Of a stretch of 64,000 nucleotides of DNA, positions 3,052 through 52,386 are shown one piece after another. The notes beneath the pieces were generated by a model. The model was not told the origin of the DNA, made no database searches, and worked only from the letters and a program-made list of their open reading frames with translations. Within the stretch, counting starts at the first letter, position 1. Every line of letters starts with the position of its first letter. The translations under genes and the position numbers were made by a program. Source of the DNA: Patescibacteria group bacterium (lineage in GTDB: Bacteria > Patescibacteriota > Minisyncoccia > Phycocordibacterales > PALSA-1337); the NCBI GenBank assembly GCA_038065415.1, contig JBBTRA010000007.1:34615-98614 (forward strand), written 5' to 3'.

Positions 3052-3597
3052 TTAAACCTTCTTAACTTGCAAGAAATCGAGCTCTACGGGTGTTTCGCGG
3101 CCAAACATCGAAACGAGCACTTTGACCTTGCCGCGCTGTGTGTCCACCTCTGCAACCTTGCCTTCAAAATCCTTGAATGGACCATCTGCAACCTTGACCA
3201 GATCCCCTGTCGAAAGATCGATAGAATGCTGAGTGTTCCCTGTGTTCATGCGTGCAAAGAGAGCCTCGACTTCCTTAGCATCGAGTGGAACCGGAGCAAC
3301 TCCTGCACCGACAAATCCCGTAACGCGTGGAGTGTTGCGCACTACGTACCATGAATCATCGGTCACGATCATATCTACCAGAACATAGCCGGGGTATATC
3401 TTCTCCTCCTCTTCCACGCGCTTGCCACCCTTGACCTTGATCTTCTTCTCAGTCGGTACAATGACAGCAAAAATCTTGTCCTCCATTCCGAGAGACTCTA
3501 TGCGCTGCTTGAGGTTACGAGCGACAGCGTTCTCATAGCCGGCGTAGGTATGGATGGCATACCACGAGCGCTCGCCTGTTGTGTGTTGTTTGGACAT
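3052..3597 (-). CDS. nusG: transcription termination/antitermination factor NusG
   Basis: 181 aa with an N-terminal NGN domain and a C-terminal KOW domain (GDLVKVADGPFKDFEGKVAEVD). Confidence 0.9.
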   Translation of the reverse strand: MSKQHTTGERSWYAIHTYAGYENAVARNLKQRIESLGMEDKIFAVIVPTEKKIKVKGGKRVEEEEKIYPGYVLVDMIVTDDSWYVVRNTPRVTGFVGAGVAPVPLDAKEVEALFARMNTGNTQHSIDLSTGDLVKVADGPFKDFEGKVAEVDTQRGKVKVLVSMFGRETPVELDFLQVKKV

Positions 3598-3622: not shown

Positions 3623-3799
3623 TTAAAAAAGGAGGGTGAGCAACTTCGAGAACACAAAATCTGAGACACCAAGAAGCGCAGCTACGACAACAGAAACGAC
3701 GATCACCATGACGGTGAAGCGAGTGGTTTGTTCGCGGCTCGGCCAATTGACGTGGGTCATTTCAGCGCGTGTTTCCTTGACGTATTCAGTGAATTTCAT
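3623..3799 (-). CDS. secE: preprotein translocase subunit SecE (58 aa, below the ORF-track cutoff)
   Basis: Manual translation gives MKFTEYVKETRAEMTHVNWPSREQTTRFTVMVIVVSVVVAALLGVSDFVFSKLLTLLF. It sits directly upstream of nusG-rplK, which is the conserved gene order. Confidence 0.75.
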   Translation of the reverse strand: MKFTEYVKETRAEMTHVNWPSREQTTRFTVMVIVVSVVVAALLGVSDFVFSKLLTLLF

Positions 3800-5000: not shown

Positions 5001-5840
5001 TTACTTACACGCGTCAATTAAATTCTCGAAAAGCGCTGTCACCGTCATCTGACCTACTCCTCCTGGTACAGGAGTGATGGCGGAGACCATTCCAGCAACT
5101 GCCACAAAATCAACATCACCTTGCAGAGACCCGTCCGGCATCCTATTGATGCCGACATCGACGATGATCTGCCCCACCGTCACGTGGCGCGCATCAATCA
5201 GGCCAGGCTTACCCACTGCGACAATCAATACATCTGCTTTTTTTGTTTCTACAGCAAGGTCCACAGTCTTACTGTGACACACGATCACATCAGCACCTGC
5301 ATGTGCGCACACATGAGCGATGGGTGCTCCGACCAACTGAGACCTCCCTACCACAGCAACCTTCTTCCCTTTCAGTTCTATACGGTGATATTCGAGCAGC
5401 TCCTTCACGCCCCGTGCTGTGGCTGGAACTATCGCATCAGGAGAATTATGTGCCAACAAACTCTGATTGGTAGGGGTCAAACCATCTACATCTTTGCGCG
5501 GATCAATCTCGCCGATGATCTGATGCCGGTCGAGGTGTGCCGGAAGCGGCAACTGTACGATGATGCCTTGAATCTCCTGATCCGCATTGCACTCTCGAAT
5601 GTGTGCCGTAACCTCTTCTTGAGAGACATCTTCAGGAAGATGGATGTGTGTCGCCTTGGCACCAATTTGCCCCGCAAATACCTTCTTCGCACGTATATAT
5701 GCCACTGAGTCTGCCCTGTCGCCCACCTGAAGTATCGCAAGCTGAGGAACATATGAAAAAGCCTGTAGCGCCTGGACAAGCTGTGCTGATTTTTCAGCTC
5801 GCACGATACGACCATCCAATATAATCGGGGATAATGACAT
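5001..5840 (-). CDS. folD: bifunctional methylenetetrahydrofolate dehydrogenase/cyclohydrolase FolD
   Basis: Contains YIRAKKVFAGQIGA...GIIVQLPLP...DVDGL...GKKVAVVGRSQLVGAPIA. The start is probably the internal Met (MSLSPIILDG). Confidence 0.9.
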   Translation of the reverse strand: MSLSPIILDGRIVRAEKSAQLVQALQAFSYVPQLAILQVGDRADSVAYIRAKKVFAGQIGAKATHIHLPEDVSQEEVTAHIRECNADQEIQGIIVQLPLPAHLDRHQIIGEIDPRKDVDGLTPTNQSLLAHNSPDAIVPATARGVKELLEYHRIELKGKKVAVVGRSQLVGAPIAHVCAHAGADVIVCHSKTVDLAVETKKADVLIVAVGKPGLIDARHVTVGQIIVDVGINRMPDGSLQGDVDFVAVAGMVSAITPVPGGVGQMTVTALFENLIDACK

Positions 5841-9029: not shown

Positions 9030-10466
9030 TTAGCGCGCCGGAGTAGCAGCTTCTACATGGACATGACCATTCCCACGATGATTCCCTGTTTCACTGGCCG
9101 TCACCAGAGCTTGGCCCAGGCGACCTAAGAGGTCATTATTCTTGGGCTGATGCTCTTCCGCACCGTCACTAAAGAGGGCGCGTTCGCGTTTGAGAGCACC
9201 TGCCGCGTAGGTCAGATCATCGGCCGTGATGAGAACCGGCGTCTTCCCCGAAGAGACCACCGCCAATTTGGCACGTTCGACGACTTCGCGGATTTCCGCC
9301 GGAATCGAGCCGTCCAACTGCTTTCCGGCCTCACTCAAGTCCTGATCCTCAACAAGGAGAACGCCTGCATAATGCTTCAAGAGCCGTTCGGCCGTTGCAG
9401 CATCGGGCGGCAGCATGTTGATCGCAGTATCGATCCGACCTGGGCGACGCATGGCGGCATTGATCTGTCCCGGATGATTAGTGGTGAAGATCACCATCAC
9501 TTCGCTGTCCTTGTTGGTGATACCATCAAGTGAGTTGAGGATGGTGTTGACGTCGTTGGTCCGGCTTTGTCCGGTAACCCGGTCAATGTCTTCGACAAAC
9601 AACACACACGGTTCATACTGCCGCGCCACCTGAAGCGCCTGAGGCAATTCAGCGGACTTGGGCAGATAGATGAACGTCCATCCCTTTTGAGTACAGATCT
9701 GGGCGATTTGCGTAGCTGTCAAGGTCTTACCCGTACCGTACTGGCCCGCGATGAGAACTCCGCGACGAATCGGCGTACCAATAGCGCGCACCGCCGCCGT
9801 GTTCCGGATCGGACCCAGGATACAGGTATCAATATCACGCTGAATCTCAGGGCGAACGATCACGGTCACCGGGTCCGCCGGTAATTCGAGGAACTTGACC
9901 TCGGGCATCTTGCGCACCGCTCCGGTCGCATCGGTCAATTCAATACCGAATGCCTTGCCGCGATACGGACTTTCGTCCGCTGCCAATTTCTCAATCCGCT
10001 CAATCAGCGCACTGATCGTGTGTTCGTTTTTCCCCTGAACATGCGCATGCAAACGGAAGATCAACCGCCCATCGTCTTGGTCCGTCCCGGTCTCAACGTA
10101 GCCACCCATTGGTAGATCGTACCGGCCCCAACGGACTTTCATCGTCTTACCCACACCGACGGCGACAGAGATGTCAGAGCCAGCATTTTCGGTTTCAACA
10201 GTGAAGCCAAACATTGCCCGAAGCGCTTTTGCGAGCGCAATCGCCCCTTCGTGAGGCGAGACATGAATGCTGTGCTGGATGCATCGCTCCTGTTCTTCTT
10301 CGTCCTGTTTCCGACCAAGAACACGAATAGCGTTCTCCAGAGTCATCTTGGCAGGAAGTACGATGGCATCCCCCTCGCGCCTCACGTTCACTTCTGGTTT
10401 ACCGCGACGATTATTGTCGCCGTACGCTGCATCATGAGCACCATACTGCAATGGTCTATTTTTCAT
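9030..10466 (-). CDS. classic-clade AAA+ ATPase with a roughly 230-aa N-terminal domain of unknown function
   Basis: Walker A GQYGTGKT, Walker B CVLFVEDID, and second region of homology TTNHPGQINAAMRRPGRID. It is markedly GC-rich compared with its neighbours. Confidence 0.8.
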   Translation of the reverse strand: MKNRPLQYGAHDAAYGDNNRRGKPEVNVRREGDAIVLPAKMTLENAIRVLGRKQDEEEQERCIQHSIHVSPHEGAIALAKALRAMFGFTVETENAGSDISVAVGVGKTMKVRWGRYDLPMGGYVETGTDQDDGRLIFRLHAHVQGKNEHTISALIERIEKLAADESPYRGKAFGIELTDATGAVRKMPEVKFLELPADPVTVIVRPEIQRDIDTCILGPIRNTAAVRAIGTPIRRGVLIAGQYGTGKTLTATQIAQICTQKGWTFIYLPKSAELPQALQVARQYEPCVLFVEDIDRVTGQSRTNDVNTILNSLDGITNKDSEVMVIFTTNHPGQINAAMRRPGRIDTAINMLPPDAATAERLLKHYAGVLLVEDQDLSEAGKQLDGSIPAEIREVVERAKLAVVSSGKTPVLITADDLTYAAGALKRERALFSDGAEEHQPKNNDLLGRLGQALVTASETGNHRGNGHVHVEAATPAR

Positions 10467-10689: not shown

Positions 10690-11262
10690 CTACTCGTATG
10701 TAGGTGCAGACTCCTTTATACCAGATTTATGGTTGTTTAGTCGAGCGAGCGCGTAGAACAGCGATGAGAGCCTGTTCAAGAATGAAAGAGTTACGGAACC
10801 AACCTTCACTTCCCCACTCTCGACTCCAGCAATCACTCGGCGCTCTGCCTTGCGTGCCAGCGTCCTCGACACATCCATGAGCGCCGCTAATTCCGTTCCG
10901 CCGGATATGAAAAAAGTTTTTATAGGGGGCATCTCCTTTTCGGCCCAGTCGACTATGAACTCGATCCTGTCGACTTTGTCCTGGCCAATCTTTTTATCTG
11001 CACCCGCAACCTCCGCCTGTACGATGAAGAGACATTCTTGCACCCACTGAATAATTTCGGAGACTTTCTTCTGGGTACCAGCCGATATGTTGACCTCATA
11101 TCCAACATCTGCAGATCGTATCTTTACCAATCCATTAAACGAGTTGAGCTCATCCAATGCTCCGAGTGCCTCAGTCTGACATGAACTCTTGGATATGCGC
11201 TGGCCAGGCTTTGAGTCGAAAGCCTTGGTCGTGCCGCCATCGCCTTTACGAGTATAGAGCAT
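10690..11262 (-). CDS. ATP:cob(I)alamin adenosyltransferase, PduO/MMAB type
   Basis: N-terminal YTRKGDGGTT motif typical of PduO-type adenosyltransferases; 190 aa. Confidence 0.75.
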   Translation of the reverse strand: MLYTRKGDGGTTKAFDSKPGQRISKSSCQTEALGALDELNSFNGLVKIRSADVGYEVNISAGTQKKVSEIIQWVQECLFIVQAEVAGADKKIGQDKVDRIEFIVDWAEKEMPPIKTFFISGGTELAALMDVSRTLARKAERRVIAGVESGEVKVGSVTLSFLNRLSSLFYALARLNNHKSGIKESAPTYE

Positions 11263-13687: not shown

Positions 13688-13741
13688 CTGATAGATACCA
13701 TGTACACAAAAAACCAGATGACCTGGCTTTTTGTGTACATG

Positions 13742-20773: not shown

Positions 20774-20997
20774 TTCCCCACAGAACTAGACACTATAGGT
20801 TTCGTACCTGACTTCTCCCCTACTCTCAATAAAGCTCTTCAGCATCTTGTTCTCAGAGTACAGCCGGAATAGAGCTCCAAACAAAAAGGCGATATTTATC
20901 GCCACCAGGGCATATAAGGCGTGTTTTGTGTATTTCATGATGTCGGGTTACTGACGAGGGTATAGCCAAGGTCTTACATTGCCACCCATCCAGAATC

Positions 20998-21030
20998 ATT
21001 GCATGAAAATCGTCGGCACATGCCGACGAT
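20998..21030. terminator. perfect palindromic hairpin (AAAATCGTCGGCA-CATG-TGCCGACGATTTT); bidirectional intrinsic terminator
   Basis: 14-bp perfect stem flanked by an A-run and a T-run, sitting between convergent transcription units. Confidence 0.55.
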
Positions 21031-21062
21031 TTTCAGTACAAGACCATTTTCTATCAATCCTG

Positions 21063-43553: not shown

Positions 43554-44900
43554 CTACAGCATCGTCCTCACCTGCGTAATCTCCTGTGACAACAACTGAT
43601 CAGTTTTCATCTCCTCGCGCATCTTTTCGTATGAATGAATGACAGTGGTATGATCTCTACCACCAAGCTTCTCTCCGATAGATGGGAAGGATATACCGAA
43701 ATCCTCACGAAGGATGTACATGACCACCTGGCGAGGGCGCACCACCTCCTTCCTGCGGGTTTTGTTGTATATGCTATCCTCGTCTATGTTGTAGAACTCA
43801 GAGACGATCTTCACTACATCCTTCACAGACATCATTTTCTTTGGTTTAACGTTGTTTTTGAGGATATTTCTGATCTCGTTGAGGCTCAGTTCCCTATTTT
43901 TGAGCTGAGTCTGACAAGCGATGACGTTGATGATACCTTCTATCTCGCGGATATTGTCCTCTATAGATGAAGAGATGTAGTCTATTATCTCATCAGAAAG
44001 GGTTATGTTGTGAGGTGCACACTTACTGCGGACGATCATCATACGCGACTCTTGATCGGGCTCAGGTATATCTATGATCATGCCTGCGTTAAATCTGCCC
44101 TTGAGACGGTCTTCGAGGCCTGGTATGACATTTGGATGTTTATCAGAGGAGAATATGAGCTGACGCGATGAATCATAGAAGGTATTGAAGAAATGAAAGA
44201 GTTCTTCCTGGAATTTTTCTTTGCCAGCAAAAAACTGCACATCATCCATAATGATCACGTCATATTTGCGGTACCTATCTTTGAAAGCCTGAACCTTTGC
44301 CTCTTGAATGGCTGAAAAGAGCTCAGAACCGAACCTTTCAGATGTAAGATAGAAGACTTTTTTGTTCGGATGGAGCTTTTTGATCTGGTTGCCTACAGCT
44401 TGGATGATATGCGTCTTACCACGACCGGTCTGTCCGTATATGAAGAGGGGGTTATATGACTGTCCTGGCGTCTTTACGACCGTCTGGGAGGCGGCATGGG
44501 CAAGTTCATTGAAGGGTCCAACGATAAGGGTCTCAAAAGTGTAGCGAGGATTGAGATTATCATCCTTATTCACATAGAAATCCTGCAACGGCATGGCTAT
44601 TGTAGGCATGCTGATCACGTCTTTCTTGGATTGGTGCGAACCCTTCCCTTCTTCTTTGATGATTACGTACTCAAGGGCGCGTACACGTTCATTCATCTGG
44701 CGCAGGATGCGCAGTATTGAGTTGTGGAACTTCTTTTGTAGCCACTCATGAGTGAATGAGTTAGGGACTCCGAGATATACCACCCCCTCATCTTCGCGCA
44801 GTATTCTGATGTCTTTGAACCATGTGGAGAAGTTTGCTTGAGAAACAGCAGTCTCTATCTCTATGAGTGCAGTCTGCCACATTTTCGTGAAGTCATTCAT
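43554..44900 (-). CDS. dnaA: chromosomal replication initiator protein DnaA
   Basis: AAA+ GQTGRGKTH motif and a C-terminal DnaA-box-binding HTH ([10 protein letters not shown]). Confidence 0.95.
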
Positions 44901-45063
44901 AGGATTTGGTGCCTATAAGTATATACCTGTTTATAGATTTGCAAACTTGTGGAGAACAAAAAAATATGTTGATAAGTTGGGGACAACAAACAATAACATC
45001 AATTGTGCAACACTGTCTTCAATAATATTGATTTATATCGAGATGTGCGGTATAGTCCTATCC

Positions 45064-45198
45064 ATGTCATTCACGTATAACCCAAACAAGCGCAAGCGCG
45101 CTAAGTCGCACGGATTCCGCGTCCGTATGAAGACTGCTCCAGGCCGTAAGGTCCTCGCTCGCCGCCGTGCCAAGGGCCGCACCCGCGTCGCTGTATAA
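45064..45198 (+). CDS. rpmH: 50S ribosomal protein L34
   Basis: [44 protein letters not shown]. Confidence 0.9.
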
Positions 45199-45199
45199 T

Positions 45200-45535
45200 A
45201 TGTCTCCCCGTTCACAGAGGCTCTCTGCTGAACAATTCAACTCCGTCATGGAAAAAGGAAGAGTCTCCCACTCTTCCCTTTTTCTCATGCGCCTAGTCAG
45301 TGGATCAACGGATACTAGGGTGGCTGCGGTTGCTCCCAAGAAAGTCGCCAAGACAGCAGTGATGCGCAACAAAATCAGGCGCAAGATATATGAGGCATTG
45401 AAAGTGATCAAACCTACATTGAAACCAAGCTTCCATGCCATAGTTTTGGCCAAACCTGCCATGATGCAGAAAAAGCAGATAGAGATAGTGGCTGACATGC
45501 GGGAGCTCTTTGTTAAAGCCAACCTTTTGAGGTAA
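45200..45535 (+). CDS. rnpA: ribonuclease P protein component
   Basis: Basic protein of about 111 aa immediately after rpmH, with an RnpA-like RNR motif (MRNKIRRKIYE). Confidence 0.8.
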   Translation: MSPRSQRLSAEQFNSVMEKGRVSHSSLFLMRLVSGSTDTRVAAVAPKKVAKTAVMRNKIRRKIYEALKVIKPTLKPSFHAIVLAKPAMMQKKQIEIVADMRELFVKANLLR

Positions 45536-45546
45536 CATGTACTTCT

Positions 45547-46296
45547 ATGTATAACGAACTCATATTTCGCCCGCTCTACAACGGCCTTGTTGGGATTATG
45601 GATCTCATACCGTGGATAGATGTCGGTATAGCCGTCATTATCTTTACTGCGATTGTGAAGCTCATCCTCTTTCCTCTTTCCAAGTCTTCTCTCCTGACTC
45701 AGGTCAAAATGAAAGAGATAGAGCCTGAGGCAGCGAAGGTCAGGGCGCAATATGCGTCAGACAGGCAGTTGCAGGCGCTCAAGATCATGGAGCTCTACAA
45801 ATCCAAGAACATCAAGCCGTTCTCGGGCATCCTCCTTCTCTTTATACAACTCCCAATACTGTTTGCACTCATATCGGTTTTCTACAAGATCATACCTACG
45901 ATTGATCCACAGTATCTCTACAGCTTCATTTCAGCGCCGGACATTTCTGGGAAGATCAATTTTCTCGGCCTCATAGACCTTACCCAAAAGAGCCTTATCT
46001 TGTCGTTGGCCACAGGAGCCATACAGTACCTTCAGTTACACTTCTCGCTGGCCTCGCGCCCCCCTGCTCCAGCTCCCGCTGGACAGACACCAGATATGGC
46101 CACCCAACTATCGCACTCCATGAGCAAGCAGATGAAGTATCTCCTTCCTATTATCGCCTTCGCTTCGACTTACTGGCTCATTCCAGCTCAGTTCCCGCAA
46201 GCAGCTGCTATTATCGCCATCTACTGGTCTACGAGTACGCTCTTCACTCTTGTTCAAGAGCTCTACATACGTAAAAAGCATATTGGTAAGCTGTAG
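45547..46296 (+). CDS. yidC: membrane protein insertase YidC/Oxa1 (short form)
   Basis: Follows rnpA. 249 aa with 5 TM helices and YidC-like motifs (LLLFIQLPILFAL). Confidence 0.85.
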   Translation: MYNELIFRPLYNGLVGIMDLIPWIDVGIAVIIFTAIVKLILFPLSKSSLLTQVKMKEIEPEAAKVRAQYASDRQLQALKIMELYKSKNIKPFSGILLLFIQLPILFALISVFYKIIPTIDPQYLYSFISAPDISGKINFLGLIDLTQKSLILSLATGAIQYLQLHFSLASRPPAPAPAGQTPDMATQLSHSMSKQMKYLLPIIAFASTYWLIPAQFPQAAAIIAIYWSTSTLFTLVQELYIRKKHIGKL

Positions 46297-46297
46297 G

Positions 46298-46405
46298 AAG
46301 CCAGCAGGACACATGCATTTCTGCTTGGCTATGTCGTGTTTGTACACGACATATTAGTGTACCGTTCTGCATAGCCAAGCAGAAATGCATGTGTCCTGCT
46401 GGCTT
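46298..46405. repeat. long perfect inverted repeat: 36-bp arms, 36-nt spacer containing a nested 7-bp hairpin
   Basis: Left arm AAGCCAGCAGGACACATGCATTTCTGCTTGGCTATG matches its exact reverse complement at 46370-46405. It sits between the convergent yidC and the first gene of the T4SS-like operon. Confidence 0.85.
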
Positions 46406-49955: not shown

Positions 49956-50429
49956 CTATTTCACCAATCCCCCGCTTGGAGGTCGTACACCTCCTTTGTT
50001 AACACGCAATGCGGCTGTAGCGGAGCTACCTGCTGGTTGACGTACACCGCCCACATTTCGTGGTGATCGTATGCTGTTCGAGAGGAGAGATTTCTGCTGC
50101 TGCTGCGCTTGGATCTGAGCCTCTTCTTTTTTGACGTCGTTATATATATACCAAACATCGAACGTCCAGAAAGGGGCTATTCCCCCGGTGACTGCATCAC
50201 CCAAGGCAAAAGCCATGAGAGATATGAGACGTGTTGGCTTGTTGAATATCGGTATTCGGAAGAGTAGGAGGAGCCCGAGCAATACAGGACCTGTGATGAG
50301 CTCGAGCAACTCGCTTATGATGACGCCTACACCGGTGAAAGTGATCAAGATCTGCACGATATCGACGACTCCAGCTACGATATAGAGGATGGCCCACTGA
50401 ATCGTCTTTTTCTTGGGCTTTTTGTCCAT
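49956..50429 (-). CDS. small polytopic membrane protein (T4SS-associated)
   Basis: 157 aa with three hydrophobic segments and a Gln-rich tail. Confidence 0.4.
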   Translation of the reverse strand: MDKKPKKKTIQWAILYIVAGVVDIVQILITFTGVGVIISELLELITGPVLLGLLLLFRIPIFNKPTRLISLMAFALGDAVTGGIAPFWTFDVWYIYNDVKKEEAQIQAQQQQKSLLSNSIRSPRNVGGVRQPAGSSATAALRVNKGGVRPPSGGLVK

Positions 50430-50445
50430 GCGTCAATTATAGCAG

Positions 50446-50565
50446 AATCGCCCGGCAGGTATGCACCTGTATTTTCTCGATATCTCGCAGAACGATACAC
50501 TATTTTTTAGTGTAGACACGCAACGAGATATCGAGAAAATACAGGTGCATACCTGCCGGGCGATT
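50446..50565. repeat. long perfect inverted repeat: 42-bp arms, 36-nt spacer containing a nested 6-bp hairpin
   Basis: Left arm AATCGCCCGGCAGGTATGCACCTGTATTTTCTCGATATCTCG matches its exact reverse complement at 50524-50565. It lies inside the operon, between the virB4 stop and the next gene. Confidence 0.85.
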
Positions 50566-50571
50566 GGATCT

Positions 50572-52386
50572 TTATCCGGCTTGTTCCAGATCCTTCTTGG
50601 CCTGCTTGATACTCATGACCTGTGCCGGGTTGGTGGTAATGATCTGATCTTCGGTGTATGAGGCGACTATCTTGATGGCTACGTGCTTGAGTCCCACGAA
50701 GAATATACCCTCTCCTACATCTGATTCGAGCAAGAGATACTTCTCTTCGTCGGTGAGGTTGAACGTCTTTTGGATATGATCGATGACCGTCGGAGACTGC
50801 TTGAGCAGTATCTGAATGGAAGAGTTGGTAACGATCGGCAATCCGTACGGAGAGTTCAAGAAGTCATCCACATCCTGGGTGATAGTGGCAAGTCCGAGGA
50901 AGTATTTGCGACCACGCTTGGCCAAACTGAACAAGAATGAGGCAGTATCCTCTGATTTCATCATCCACCACGCTTCGTCAATGACGAGTAAGCGTTTCTT
51001 GAGATTCTTGCGGATAGCATTCCATATATAGTGTGTGACGATATACATGGCGACTGGTTTGAGCTCGTCTTCCATGTCGCGGAGTGAGAAAACAGCGAAC
51101 TTCTTATTGATATCTACGTTAGAAGGCCTGTTGATGAAGCCGGACCATGTTCCCTTGGTGTACTTGGAGAGCCTCTGAACAAGAGAGTCCCCTCCTTCCA
51201 TTCCAGCCAAGACAAGTTCGAAGTCAGACAGAAGTGGTGGCTCTACAGTACGGAAGTCTGCTTCAGGAGTGATGTCTTTGAGGGCGTACGTTTCGGTGAT
51301 AGCGCGATCGATGATCGCATCTTCTTCCTGGGTCAAACCACCAAGCATGATGCGGAAGAGTCCCACCAGGTTGATGATGTTGGAGCGGAGAACATCAGCG
51401 GCTGACTCGTCCTCGCGCGGTATCGGGAGATCAAATGGATTGATATGGTGCTCTGAATTGAGAGAGATGTTGAAGTACTTCCCTCCGGTTGCTTCGGCCA
51501 TGTACTCATATTCTTTTTCAGGGTCAATGACGATAACATCGGTATCGAACATGAGCGTACGCAGGATCTCAAGTTTGGTATTGTATGATTTTCCAGCTCC
51601 AGCAACGGCGAATGTTACGGAATTGTAGTTCTCGAGAGAGAATCTGTCGAAAAGGACGAGCGACGAGTTATGTCGATTGATGCCGTAGAGTATTCCTTTG
51701 TCGGAAGTAAGATCGAAGGAAACGAACGGGAACAGCGAAGACAGTGGGGATGAGTTGAGTTTGGAATGCACAGCGAGCTGGTCATCAGCTATAGGAATGA
51801 CCGATTTGAAGCCCTGTTCTTGCTGGAAGAGTGCCGGCTTTACATAGATGAGCTTTGATTCGAGGATGGATTTGATCTCAGATTCGAGCTTGTCGAGCTC
51901 CCCTTCGTTGTCTGCGAAGAGGGTGATGTAGACGCCAACATCAAAAAGATGCTCCTGTGCCTGCATGAGCTGGTCTCTGAGCTGTTCGAGGTCCTGGTAC
52001 GCTGTGTCGAGCGCCGGATCGCGGACGAGACCCTTCTCTTCCCTGTGTGAAATCTGGCTCTGTACCTCAGCAACCTTCTTCTGGAAATGTCTCAAGATCT
52101 TGGCTGTATCGACTGGGTGTATGAATATAGAGATGTTGAATATCTTGTCGAGGTTGATGATCGGGGCGAACCAGCTTTCATCGAGGAAGCGTGGGTATGA
52201 GATGACGAAGAGTGTACGGCCAACTTTTTCGCCTAGGTTGAGATCCTTTGGGCTGATCTTGAGTGCCGATGGTGATATGACATCCTTGAGCTCCAGCACG
52301 CCGGCCTGGTATATCTCTTCGGGTAGGATGGAGACGATCGGAGATTGCTCGTCTTTTTTCCCGAATAGTTTTCCGATGAATGACAT
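50572..52386 (-). CDS. virB4: type IV secretion ATPase VirB4/TrbE family (ATPase portion)
   Basis: Walker A AGAGKSY and Walker B LLVIDEAWWMM. The start is taken at the internal MSFIGKLF, 8 nt after the upstream ORF's stop. Confidence 0.85.
   Translation of the reverse strand: MSFIGKLFGKKDEQSPIVSILPEEIYQAGVLELKDVISPSALKISPKDLNLGEKVGRTLFVISYPRFLDESWFAPIINLDKIFNISIFIHPVDTAKILRHFQKKVAEVQSQISHREEKGLVRDPALDTAYQDLEQLRDQLMQAQEHLFDVGVYITLFADNEGELDKLESEIKSILESKLIYVKPALFQQEQGFKSVIPIADDQLAVHSKLNSSPLSSLFPFVSFDLTSDKGILYGINRHNSSLVLFDRFSLENYNSVTFAVAGAGKSYNTKLEILRTLMFDTDVIVIDPEKEYEYMAEATGGKYFNISLNSEHHINPFDLPIPREDESAADVLRSNIINLVGLFRIMLGGLTQEEDAIIDRAITETYALKDITPEADFRTVEPPLLSDFELVLAGMEGGDSLVQRLSKYTKGTWSGFINRPSNVDINKKFAVFSLRDMEDELKPVAMYIVTHYIWNAIRKNLKKRLLVIDEAWWMMKSEDTASFLFSLAKRGRKYFLGLATITQDVDDFLNSPYGLPIVTNSSIQILLKQSPTVIDHIQKTFNLTDEEKYLLLESDVGEGIFFVGLKHVAIKIVASYTEDQIITTNPAQVMSIKQAKKDLEQAG

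Follow-up and report, generated by a model that had tools for sequence, protein, structure and literature searches.

Genomic Context

The window, that is, the whole stretch of 64,000 nucleotides analysed here, is part of the core chromosome of an uncultured groundwater member of the Patescibacteria/Paceibacteria ('Taylorbacteria'-like; candidate phyla radiation, CPR). It carries dnaA, dnaN, yidC, polA, ruvB, eno, a mur ligase gene and seven tRNA genes, together with a chromosomal type IV secretion operon. The cumulative GC skew reaches its minimum at 46-48 kb, adjoining dnaA and DnaA boxes. The DnaA-box-like repeats TTATCAACA and TCTCCACAA upstream of dnaA and the skew minimum (window 44.9-48 kb) point to a replication origin in this region.

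In the secretion operon, the stop codon of virB4 lies 6 nt upstream of a long inverted repeat, here termed W2 (Table 1). Four fast-evolving genes of a type IV secretion/pilin block follow downstream of W2. The genes of the operon otherwise overlap or are less than 20 nt apart. The VirB4 protein is 96-98% identical between genomes with saturated synonymous sites, and YidC is 70-80% identical. The four genes after virB4 share 27-66% identity or are undetectable, and conservation drops exactly at the site of the hairpin, in hairpin-free genomes too.

Only 16 nt, reading CTGCTATAATTGACGC, separate W2 from the ATG (50429) of the first gene of this block. They contain TGCTATAAT, which resembles an extended -10 promoter element. 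This motif starts 1 nt downstream of W2, as its TG is separated from the arm by C 50445 alone, and it ends 6 nt before the ATG. The arrangement of TGnTATAAT, 6-7 nt and a start codon after virB4 is kept in all lineages, in loci that carry a hairpin as well as in those that do not (the window and L003, L006, L008, L012, L017, L096 and L097; L numbers denote the related loci described below). We infer from this arrangement that the gene for the 157-aa protein has its own promoter, which would probably give rise to a leaderless mRNA for the pilin-block genes. Since the promoter motif does not depend on the presence of the hairpin, W2 would mark a boundary between transcription units and not a point in the middle of a transcript. 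The original prediction had placed W2 within a co-transcribed operon. Its position between the virB4 stop and the next start was correctly recognized, but the conserved TGnTATAAT directly downstream speaks against simple co-transcription.

Table 1. Features of the virB4 junction and of the sister element W1 (positions in the window).
Feature	Position	Strand	Description
VirB4/TraC-type type IV secretion ATPase gene	50572..52386	minus	604 aa; Pfam TraG P-loop, AAA_10, DUF87
Membrane protein gene	49956..50429	minus	157 aa; first of four fast-evolving genes downstream of W2
Extended -10 promoter-like motif	50436..50444	minus	TGCTATAAT; putative promoter, from sequence reading
W2 left arm	50446..50487		AATCGCCCGGCAGGTATGCACCTGTATTTTCTCGATATCTCG; 100% complementary to 50524-50565
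W2 right arm	50524..50565		42 nt
W2 centre (core)	50488..50523	minus	36 nt; minus-strand reading TTGCGTGTCTACACTAAAAAATAGTGTATCGTTCTG
W2 apical mini-hairpin within core	50496..50514		TACACTA/TAGTGTA; 7 bp, 5-nt loop
Small palindrome in each W2 arm	50455..50470	plus	GCAGGT ATGC ACCTGT, then ATTTTCTC
Sister element W1	46298..46405	plus	arms 46298-46333 / 46370-46405, 36 nt, perfect; core 46334-46369

Structure of W2 and Its Sister Element

A repeat search confirmed the predicted geometry of W2 together with the predicted arm and spacer sequences: the element is an exact inverted repeat of 120 nt in total, in which two fully complementary 42-nt arms, with the ends AATCGCC.../...GGCGATT, enclose the 36-nt centre. 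The short palindrome noted in the spacer is also present, but it extends over 7 bp instead of the 6 bp first described, with its halves at 50496-50502 (TACACTA) and 50508-50514 (TAGTGTA). The additional small palindrome in the arm has a terminator-like look. Its mirror copy lies at 50556-50541 on the minus strand, and it is thus encountered first from whichever direction W2 is entered. Folded as RNA, W2 reaches -95.4 kcal/mol, compared with -35.5 +/- 3.5 kcal/mol for shuffled sequences (z = -17.3); the DNA folding energy is -60.3 kcal/mol (z = -17.1). In our scan of the window, W2 and a second element, W1, were the only two inverted repeats of their class, and 10 mononucleotide shuffles of the window contained no inverted repeat that scored above 17. 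Of two spurious ORFs that had been attributed to W2, the one at 50461..50661 (plus strand) indeed starts inside an arm, whereas the one at 50197..50436 (minus strand) does not overlap the element. The sequence of W2 is also present in independent assemblies produced by different assemblers. One independently assembled Logan contig (L002) stops exactly 30 nt inside both W1 and W2, which is expected if an inverted repeat exceeds the k-mer of the assembler and argues against an artefact.

W1 takes up exactly the space between yidC and the last secretion-operon gene, two convergent genes with stops at 46296 and 46418, respectively, and its folding energy is -89.8 kcal/mol. The proposal that W2 shares the design of this element holds for two real structures and extends to sequence homology of their 36-nt centres. 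The W1 core (plus strand) and the W2 core (minus strand) are identical at 26/36 positions in an ungapped alignment and thus have opposite orientations. Both contain TAGTGTAYCGTTCTG, whose exact occurrences in the window are limited to these two cores. The two elements adopt one common fold, in which the long stem leads to an asymmetric internal loop that is topped by a hairpin of 6-7 bp. Their arms are 25/37 identical when gaps are allowed, which is better than shuffles (z 2.7). A scenario of unrelated arms around a shared centre was dropped because of this weak but significant arm homology.

No further W-type copy was found in 74 kb of the source genome, including an extra 10 kb to the left of the window. 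A search of JGI metagenomes with a 27-nt core pattern returned one chance match without flanking arms, and a 15-nt core gave 84 chance matches in viral contigs, none with flanking arms. At window position 20781-20795, directly after a stop codon, the sequence CAGAACTAGACACTA matches the W-type core at 13/15 positions and lacks arms on either side. It could be a solo core in decay, or the similarity could be coincidental.

Related Elements in Other Genomes

Approximately 100 loci around VirB4 homologues were collected, and 87 non-redundant sequences (1.43 Mb) were scanned for hairpins. This census yielded 20 elements of the W class, with arms of 26-47 bp and centres of 28-109 nt. Sixteen of the 20 are free of any mismatch; among 705 arm pairs there are 5 mismatches, just one of them G-T. 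All 20 elements are intergenic and take up most of the space available there; any called flanking ORF is at most 25 nt away. At least one element occurs in 12 of the 25 genomes whose VirB4 is at least 90% identical, as compared with 3 of 62 more distant genomes.

Three recurrent slots accommodate 16/20 elements. The first slot (S1), where W2 resides, extends from the virB4 stop to the next promoter and is occupied in the window, L003, L012, L017 and L092-95. A further copy at S1, in L089, has 24-nt arms and is below the class cutoff. Slot S2 is the place where the end of the secretion operon faces the end of yidC (window, L019, L022, L043 and L097). Elements at this site sit between two stop codons, with distances ranging from an overlap of a few nt to a clearance of 17 nt. 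The third slot (S3) lies between the divergent rpmH and dnaA genes, beside the DnaA boxes (L003, L005, L006, L018, L063 and L097). The geometry at S1 is uniform, with arms of 36-47 nt and centres of 28-38 nt, except for one 89-nt centre in L017.

One and the same slot holds different centre families in different genomes, and centres are alike within a genome: the copies in L017 have 102/105 core nucleotides in common, and the pairs in L003 and in L097 also share their cores. The arms of different copies are approximately 60-67% identical if gaps are allowed. Arms from different genomes or slots align above shuffles, weakly but significantly (z 2.2-4.1), and the outermost 12 nt of the arms agree at 10/12 positions between the L017 copies, which lie at two unrelated loci. 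The divergence of whole elements across genomes is too high for a multiple alignment to be informative. Homologous arms and cores shared within genomes identify these hairpins as palindromic repeat families and not as independent inventions.

Several loci contain structures of related appearance. In L089 (Campbellbacteria), five hairpin copies are found within 12 kb (3174-3277, 3650-3773, 5416-5517, 11082-11189 and 1-29), one of them at the slot downstream of virB4. The intact copies are 104-124 bp long, with arms of 24-34 nt and a 56-nt centre; two copies are decayed by arm mismatches or a deletion, and the arms are well conserved. Judged from their sequences, these copies look like a recently expanded MITE-like family of the same architecture. 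Versions with long centres (82-109 nt), which fold into further hairpins and have no Rfam match, occur in L017 (607-773 and 11821-11995), L019 (15925-16076), L022 (16058-16226) and L043 (15370-15516). The long centres of L017 and L019 have their ends in common in flipped orientation, and those of L022 and L043 both start with GAGGAnnCTCTCGCA. Perfect palindromes of 40-48 bp with spacers of 0-2 nt, a kind of sequence that is usually unstable in bacteria, are present in L045 (9489-9536), L064 (15302-15346), L058 (662-702) and L026 (15936-15979).

Gain, Loss, and Possible Maintenance of the Hairpins

In most of about 77 genomes, the gap at S1 is 1-45 nt long and unstructured. Empty sites occur even where VirB4 is 96-98% identical to the protein encoded in the window (L005, 7 nt; L006, 15 nt; L008, 18 nt; L096, 20 nt). 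As orthologous sites are mostly empty, W2 is an inserted member of a repeat family rather than a constant component of the operon. The case of an exclusively locus-specific element, for which unrelated sequence of similar length in orthologous operons and a lack of other copies had been anticipated, was not borne out, because these sites are mostly empty and copies exist elsewhere. However, the identity at third codon positions between the compared genomes is only 0.26-0.54, so that synonymous sites are saturated. VirB4 is an extreme conservation outlier; for YidC, DnaA and the secretion proteins encoded downstream, identities range from 27 to 91%. Due to this saturation, filled versus empty sites and differing arms at one slot represent ancient gains and losses. 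The comparison of orthologous operons that had been suggested thus did reveal empty sites, but to equate them with mobility is too strong for genomes at this distance.

The idea that W2 is a mobile miniature element fared similarly. Copies elsewhere and empty sites agree with it, but the hallmarks of transposition are lacking. No direct repeat flanks the five elements at the virB4 site or those at the dnaA site, no transposase is encoded among the 30 window ORFs scanned, and no RAYT (Y1 transposase) gene was found within 74 kb of the source genome. An empty allele from the same species is also missing, as sequence collections contain no strain of this species; the closest non-identical homologue of a fast-evolving 431-aa neighbour is 66% identical. 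An origin of the arms as inverted duplications of the local target was rejected, because the empty virB4 sites comprise 7-18 nt and the outer arm ends in L017 are shared across unrelated loci. One arm in L003 resembles the empty site of L008 at a level indistinguishable from chance.

Recent variation could be followed in a population sample of four contigs (L092-95) with identical VirB4 protein. Two of the 115 positions of their S1 element vary, compared with 7.6% of the four-fold degenerate sites in virB4 (binomial p 0.006). Both changes are G-to-A, affect one arm and are uncompensated. These single-arm changes indicate that mismatches do arise, yet the elements stay perfect across deep divergence. 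Furthermore, the near absence of G-T pairs suggests that complementarity is preserved at the level of DNA and that RNA pairing is not all that is maintained. Template switching is an established mechanism of arm-to-arm correction in inverted repeats. Such a process, instead of selection for RNA pairing, might keep the exact Watson-Crick match of the arms. Within L017, the centres differ by 3% and the arms by more than 40%. This much stronger conservation of centres over arms in one and the same genome is not predicted by a simple model of copying and decay.

Possible Function at Transcription-Unit Boundaries

On balance, we consider W2 to be probably a copy of a lineage-specific family of intergenic hairpins in Paceibacteria, which is REP- or MITE-like and likely serves as a boundary terminator, insulator or RNase III site. 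According to this model, each element would combine two long, exactly complementary arms with an asymmetric centre that has a small hairpin of its own. Such elements would be gained and lost, fall into subfamilies particular to each genome and persist at the junctions of transcription units. If transcribed from virB4, W2 would form a double-stranded RNA stem of 42 bp. This stem might stop or pause read-through, or it might offer a cleavage site for RNase III; either way, virB4 would be uncoupled from the downstream pilin-block genes. The perfect 42-bp stem in the virB4-sense RNA is longer than the double-stranded RNA needed by RNase III (at least ~20 bp), and cleavage is a prediction from this length. 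There are precedents for both activities, since RNase III cleaves the transcripts of Correia MITEs at the inverted repeats, and SPRITE elements resemble terminators (PMC10969869). From the sequence, a role of W2 in termination, processing or mRNA stability is most plausible. Attenuation had also been proposed; in its classical form it is unlikely, as there is neither a leader peptide nor an alternative pairing with a downstream terminator.

Being palindromic, W2 would act in both directions, which fits the location of W1 between convergent genes. A bidirectional boundary hairpin appears to be the most economical functional reading, because S1 leads from a stop to a promoter, S2 lies between convergent stops, L050 has a terminator at S1 and the element is constrained in the population sample. 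The terminator in L050 is a canonical bidirectional intrinsic one, and L076 has a small terminator at S1, too. Two observations argue against a role as terminator. First, six elements occupy S3 between the divergent rpmH and dnaA genes, where no terminator is needed. Second, W2 has no U-run, and its stem and loop are far outside the dimensions of intrinsic terminators.

A more far-reaching interpretation, which we regard as rather unlikely, is that the elements represent a 'perfect-arm' class of Paceibacteria hairpins. Here the structured centre would be the active part, the arms would be rewritten by a dedicated DNA-level process, and the whole would have been recruited as an orientation-independent boundary module. 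Through fold-back or a template switch, for example, one arm would be copied from its partner, so that the two stay complementary. The modules would stand at the borders of transcription units and of the origin, where these genomes would lack conventional terminators.

W2 might also be a purely selfish or neutral palindromic repeat that persists in harmless intergenic spots and plays no role in gene expression. Its patchy presence and the predominance of empty orthologous sites are consistent with this view, as are the occupation of all three boundary types, divergent promoters included, and the multi-copy family with decayed copies in L089. In addition, the tight packing of the operon genes, which overlap or are separated by less than 20 nt, leaves few permissive sites for a repeat. 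However, variation in the single population sample is lower in the element than at four-fold sites, the S1 geometry is kept despite complete sequence turnover, and the three slots have been reused by different core families. The ordinary terminators found at S1 in some genomes also speak for a function at this site. A repeat without any function is thus conceivable, but not likely.

Improbable, although compatible with some aspects of the data, is an element that acts as DNA, either as a cruciform or hairpin near oriC or as an exchange boundary of the pilin block that is bracketed by W1 and W2. Both elements are no more than 6 kb away from dnaA and from the minimum of the GC skew, one recurrent slot abuts DnaA boxes, and the strict Watson-Crick pairing of the arms points to DNA rather than RNA. 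Moreover, W1 and W2 bracket exactly those four genes whose products are 27-66% identical, as opposed to 96-98% for VirB4. Yet every locus was retrieved by way of virB4, which itself neighbours oriC, and the proximity is therefore largely a sampling effect. The conservation drop is also seen in the hairpin-free loci L005, L096 and L008, and hairpin pairs in other genomes bracket other sets of genes. A 36-nt spacer furthermore disfavours the extrusion of a cruciform.

The remaining explanations are disfavoured by direct tests. The site would be sensible for a terminator or attenuator hairpin that evolved in place outside any repeat family, and small terminators exist there in L050 and L076. This origin of W2 is nonetheless very doubtful, given that a homologous core and related arms recur in W1 and at other loci of other genomes, that the size is far beyond need and that a U-tract is missing. 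There is little to be said for an invertible switch, in which recombination between the arms would flip the 36-nt centre and alter local expression. The orientation of the core relative to virB4 appears to be opposite in the window and in L003, and inversion has been reported for Correia elements (PMC10969869), but the core has no convincing promoter when read on both strands, no recombinase gene is nearby, and the elements of L092-95 all have one orientation. Finally, arms captured from foreign spacer-like sequence, as their length of 36-47 nt and their variation between copies could suggest, or a palindrome created by assembly can practically be dismissed, since arm 20-mers are absent from viral contigs, BLAST finds no match in phages or plasmids, the arms of different elements are mutually homologous, and independent assemblies and assemblers agree, with contigs breaking 30 nt into the arms. 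The spacer-like origin was rejected for the lack of an exact match in viral contigs and of BLAST matches in phages and plasmids.

Comparison with Known Repeats

The family of W2 is undescribed: intergenic palindromic repeats are known as a kind, but none has been described before in this phylum, and we found no description of such elements in the literature on Patescibacteria or Parcubacteria. Two of its properties are unusual, namely the strict perfection of the long arms and the higher conservation of centres than of arms. W2 has no Rfam match at the gathering threshold, and permissive thresholds bring up only sub-threshold models of plant microRNA precursors. These models match any long hairpin. 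The 132 kb of related loci gave no Rfam match.

The Correia/NEMIS elements of Neisseria, which are prokaryotic MITEs, resemble W2 as intergenic inverted repeats of ~100-200 bp around a functional centre that are frequent beside promoters or within operons. Their transcripts fold into a long hairpin whose cleavage by RNase III changes the fate of the mRNA, and inversion has been reported as well (PMC10969869). However, their inverted repeats span 26 bp, are conserved among more than 100 copies and are associated with a TA target duplication. In W2, two thirds of the length is arm sequence, which is exactly complementary within a copy and ~60% alike between copies. W2 also has no target duplication and belongs to a low-copy family (2 in 74 kb). 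REP and BIME sequences are, like the W elements, palindromes outside genes that are located at the borders of operons or between convergent genes, form genome-specific families and lack target duplications. Roles proposed for them include termination, mRNA stabilisation and supercoiling, and REPs are described as imperfect palindromes of 20-40 nt with a GTAG or CGTC head and hundreds of copies (PMC3733652). W2, in contrast, is a perfect, low-copy element of 120 nt with a structured 36-nt centre, and no RAYT gene was found in its window. The arm ends of the W elements read AATCGCC and GAAGCC, and the GTAG/CGTC head is missing.

Bidirectional intrinsic terminators and SPRITE elements resemble W2 as palindromic hairpins that close a transcription unit; they work in both directions, as W2 would. 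Intrinsic terminators have a GC-rich stem of 5-15 bp, a loop of 3-8 nt and a U-run. W2 differs by its 42-bp stem, its 36-nt centre and the absence of a U-run, as the stem is followed by CUGCUAUAAU. In W2, a scan with a terminator consensus picks up nothing but the small palindrome within each arm. Terminator-like palindromes with 19-bp and 15-bp stems and loops of 2-5 nt do occur beside tRNA genes of the window (13699-13741 and 21004-21035). The genome thus also uses conventional small hairpins, which sets the elements with arms of 36-42 bp apart as a separate class.

Hairpin-forming elements of sponge mitochondria and palindromic repeats of Volvox are likewise short, intergenic hairpin repeats in compact genomes, where they are described as selfish and as spreading in lineage-specific bursts in small genomes (PMC2800124, PMC2670323). 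Hosts and sequences are unrelated to those of W2, and the likeness is one of architecture alone. The attC sites of integrons share with W2 a hairpin architecture that is kept over sequence, a length of ~60-140 nt and a position at gene boundaries, and they act as folded single-stranded DNA. They are defined by the outer core sites RYYYAAC and GTTRRRY and by extrahelical bases in an imperfect stem. The arm ends of W2 do not match these core sites, its stem is perfect, no integrase or cassette array is present, and its neighbours are conserved chromosomal type IV secretion genes. The elements also differ from invertons by the single orientation in L092-95, the lack of a promoter in the core and the lack of a recombinase nearby.

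Members of the CPR have tiny genomes from which almost no non-coding elements have been described. A hairpin family at transcription-unit boundaries near the origin would be among the first classes of regulatory or selfish DNA defined for these organisms. As the arms retain exact complementarity through full sequence turnover, the family could also be a natural system for studying arm-to-arm correction. If the class with dedicated rewriting of the arms exists, it would represent a new mode of repeat maintenance and a CPR-specific way to insulate transcription units.

Further Observations

Two Logan contigs break off precisely 30 nt into a hairpin arm, L002 at both ends and L004 at its 3' end, and virB4 is the sole gene on many contigs of ~1.85-2.0 kb. 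The hairpins thus break short-read assemblies, so that metagenome-assembled genomes of this clade are fragmented and the elements are under-counted in databases. In the window, mechanically called ORFs at 44863-45535 overlap the region that corresponds to rpmH and rnpA (plus strand) in related loci. A minus-strand gene at 9030-10466 encodes a 478-aa protein with AAA and nSTAND-type NTPase domains that is possibly related to defence.
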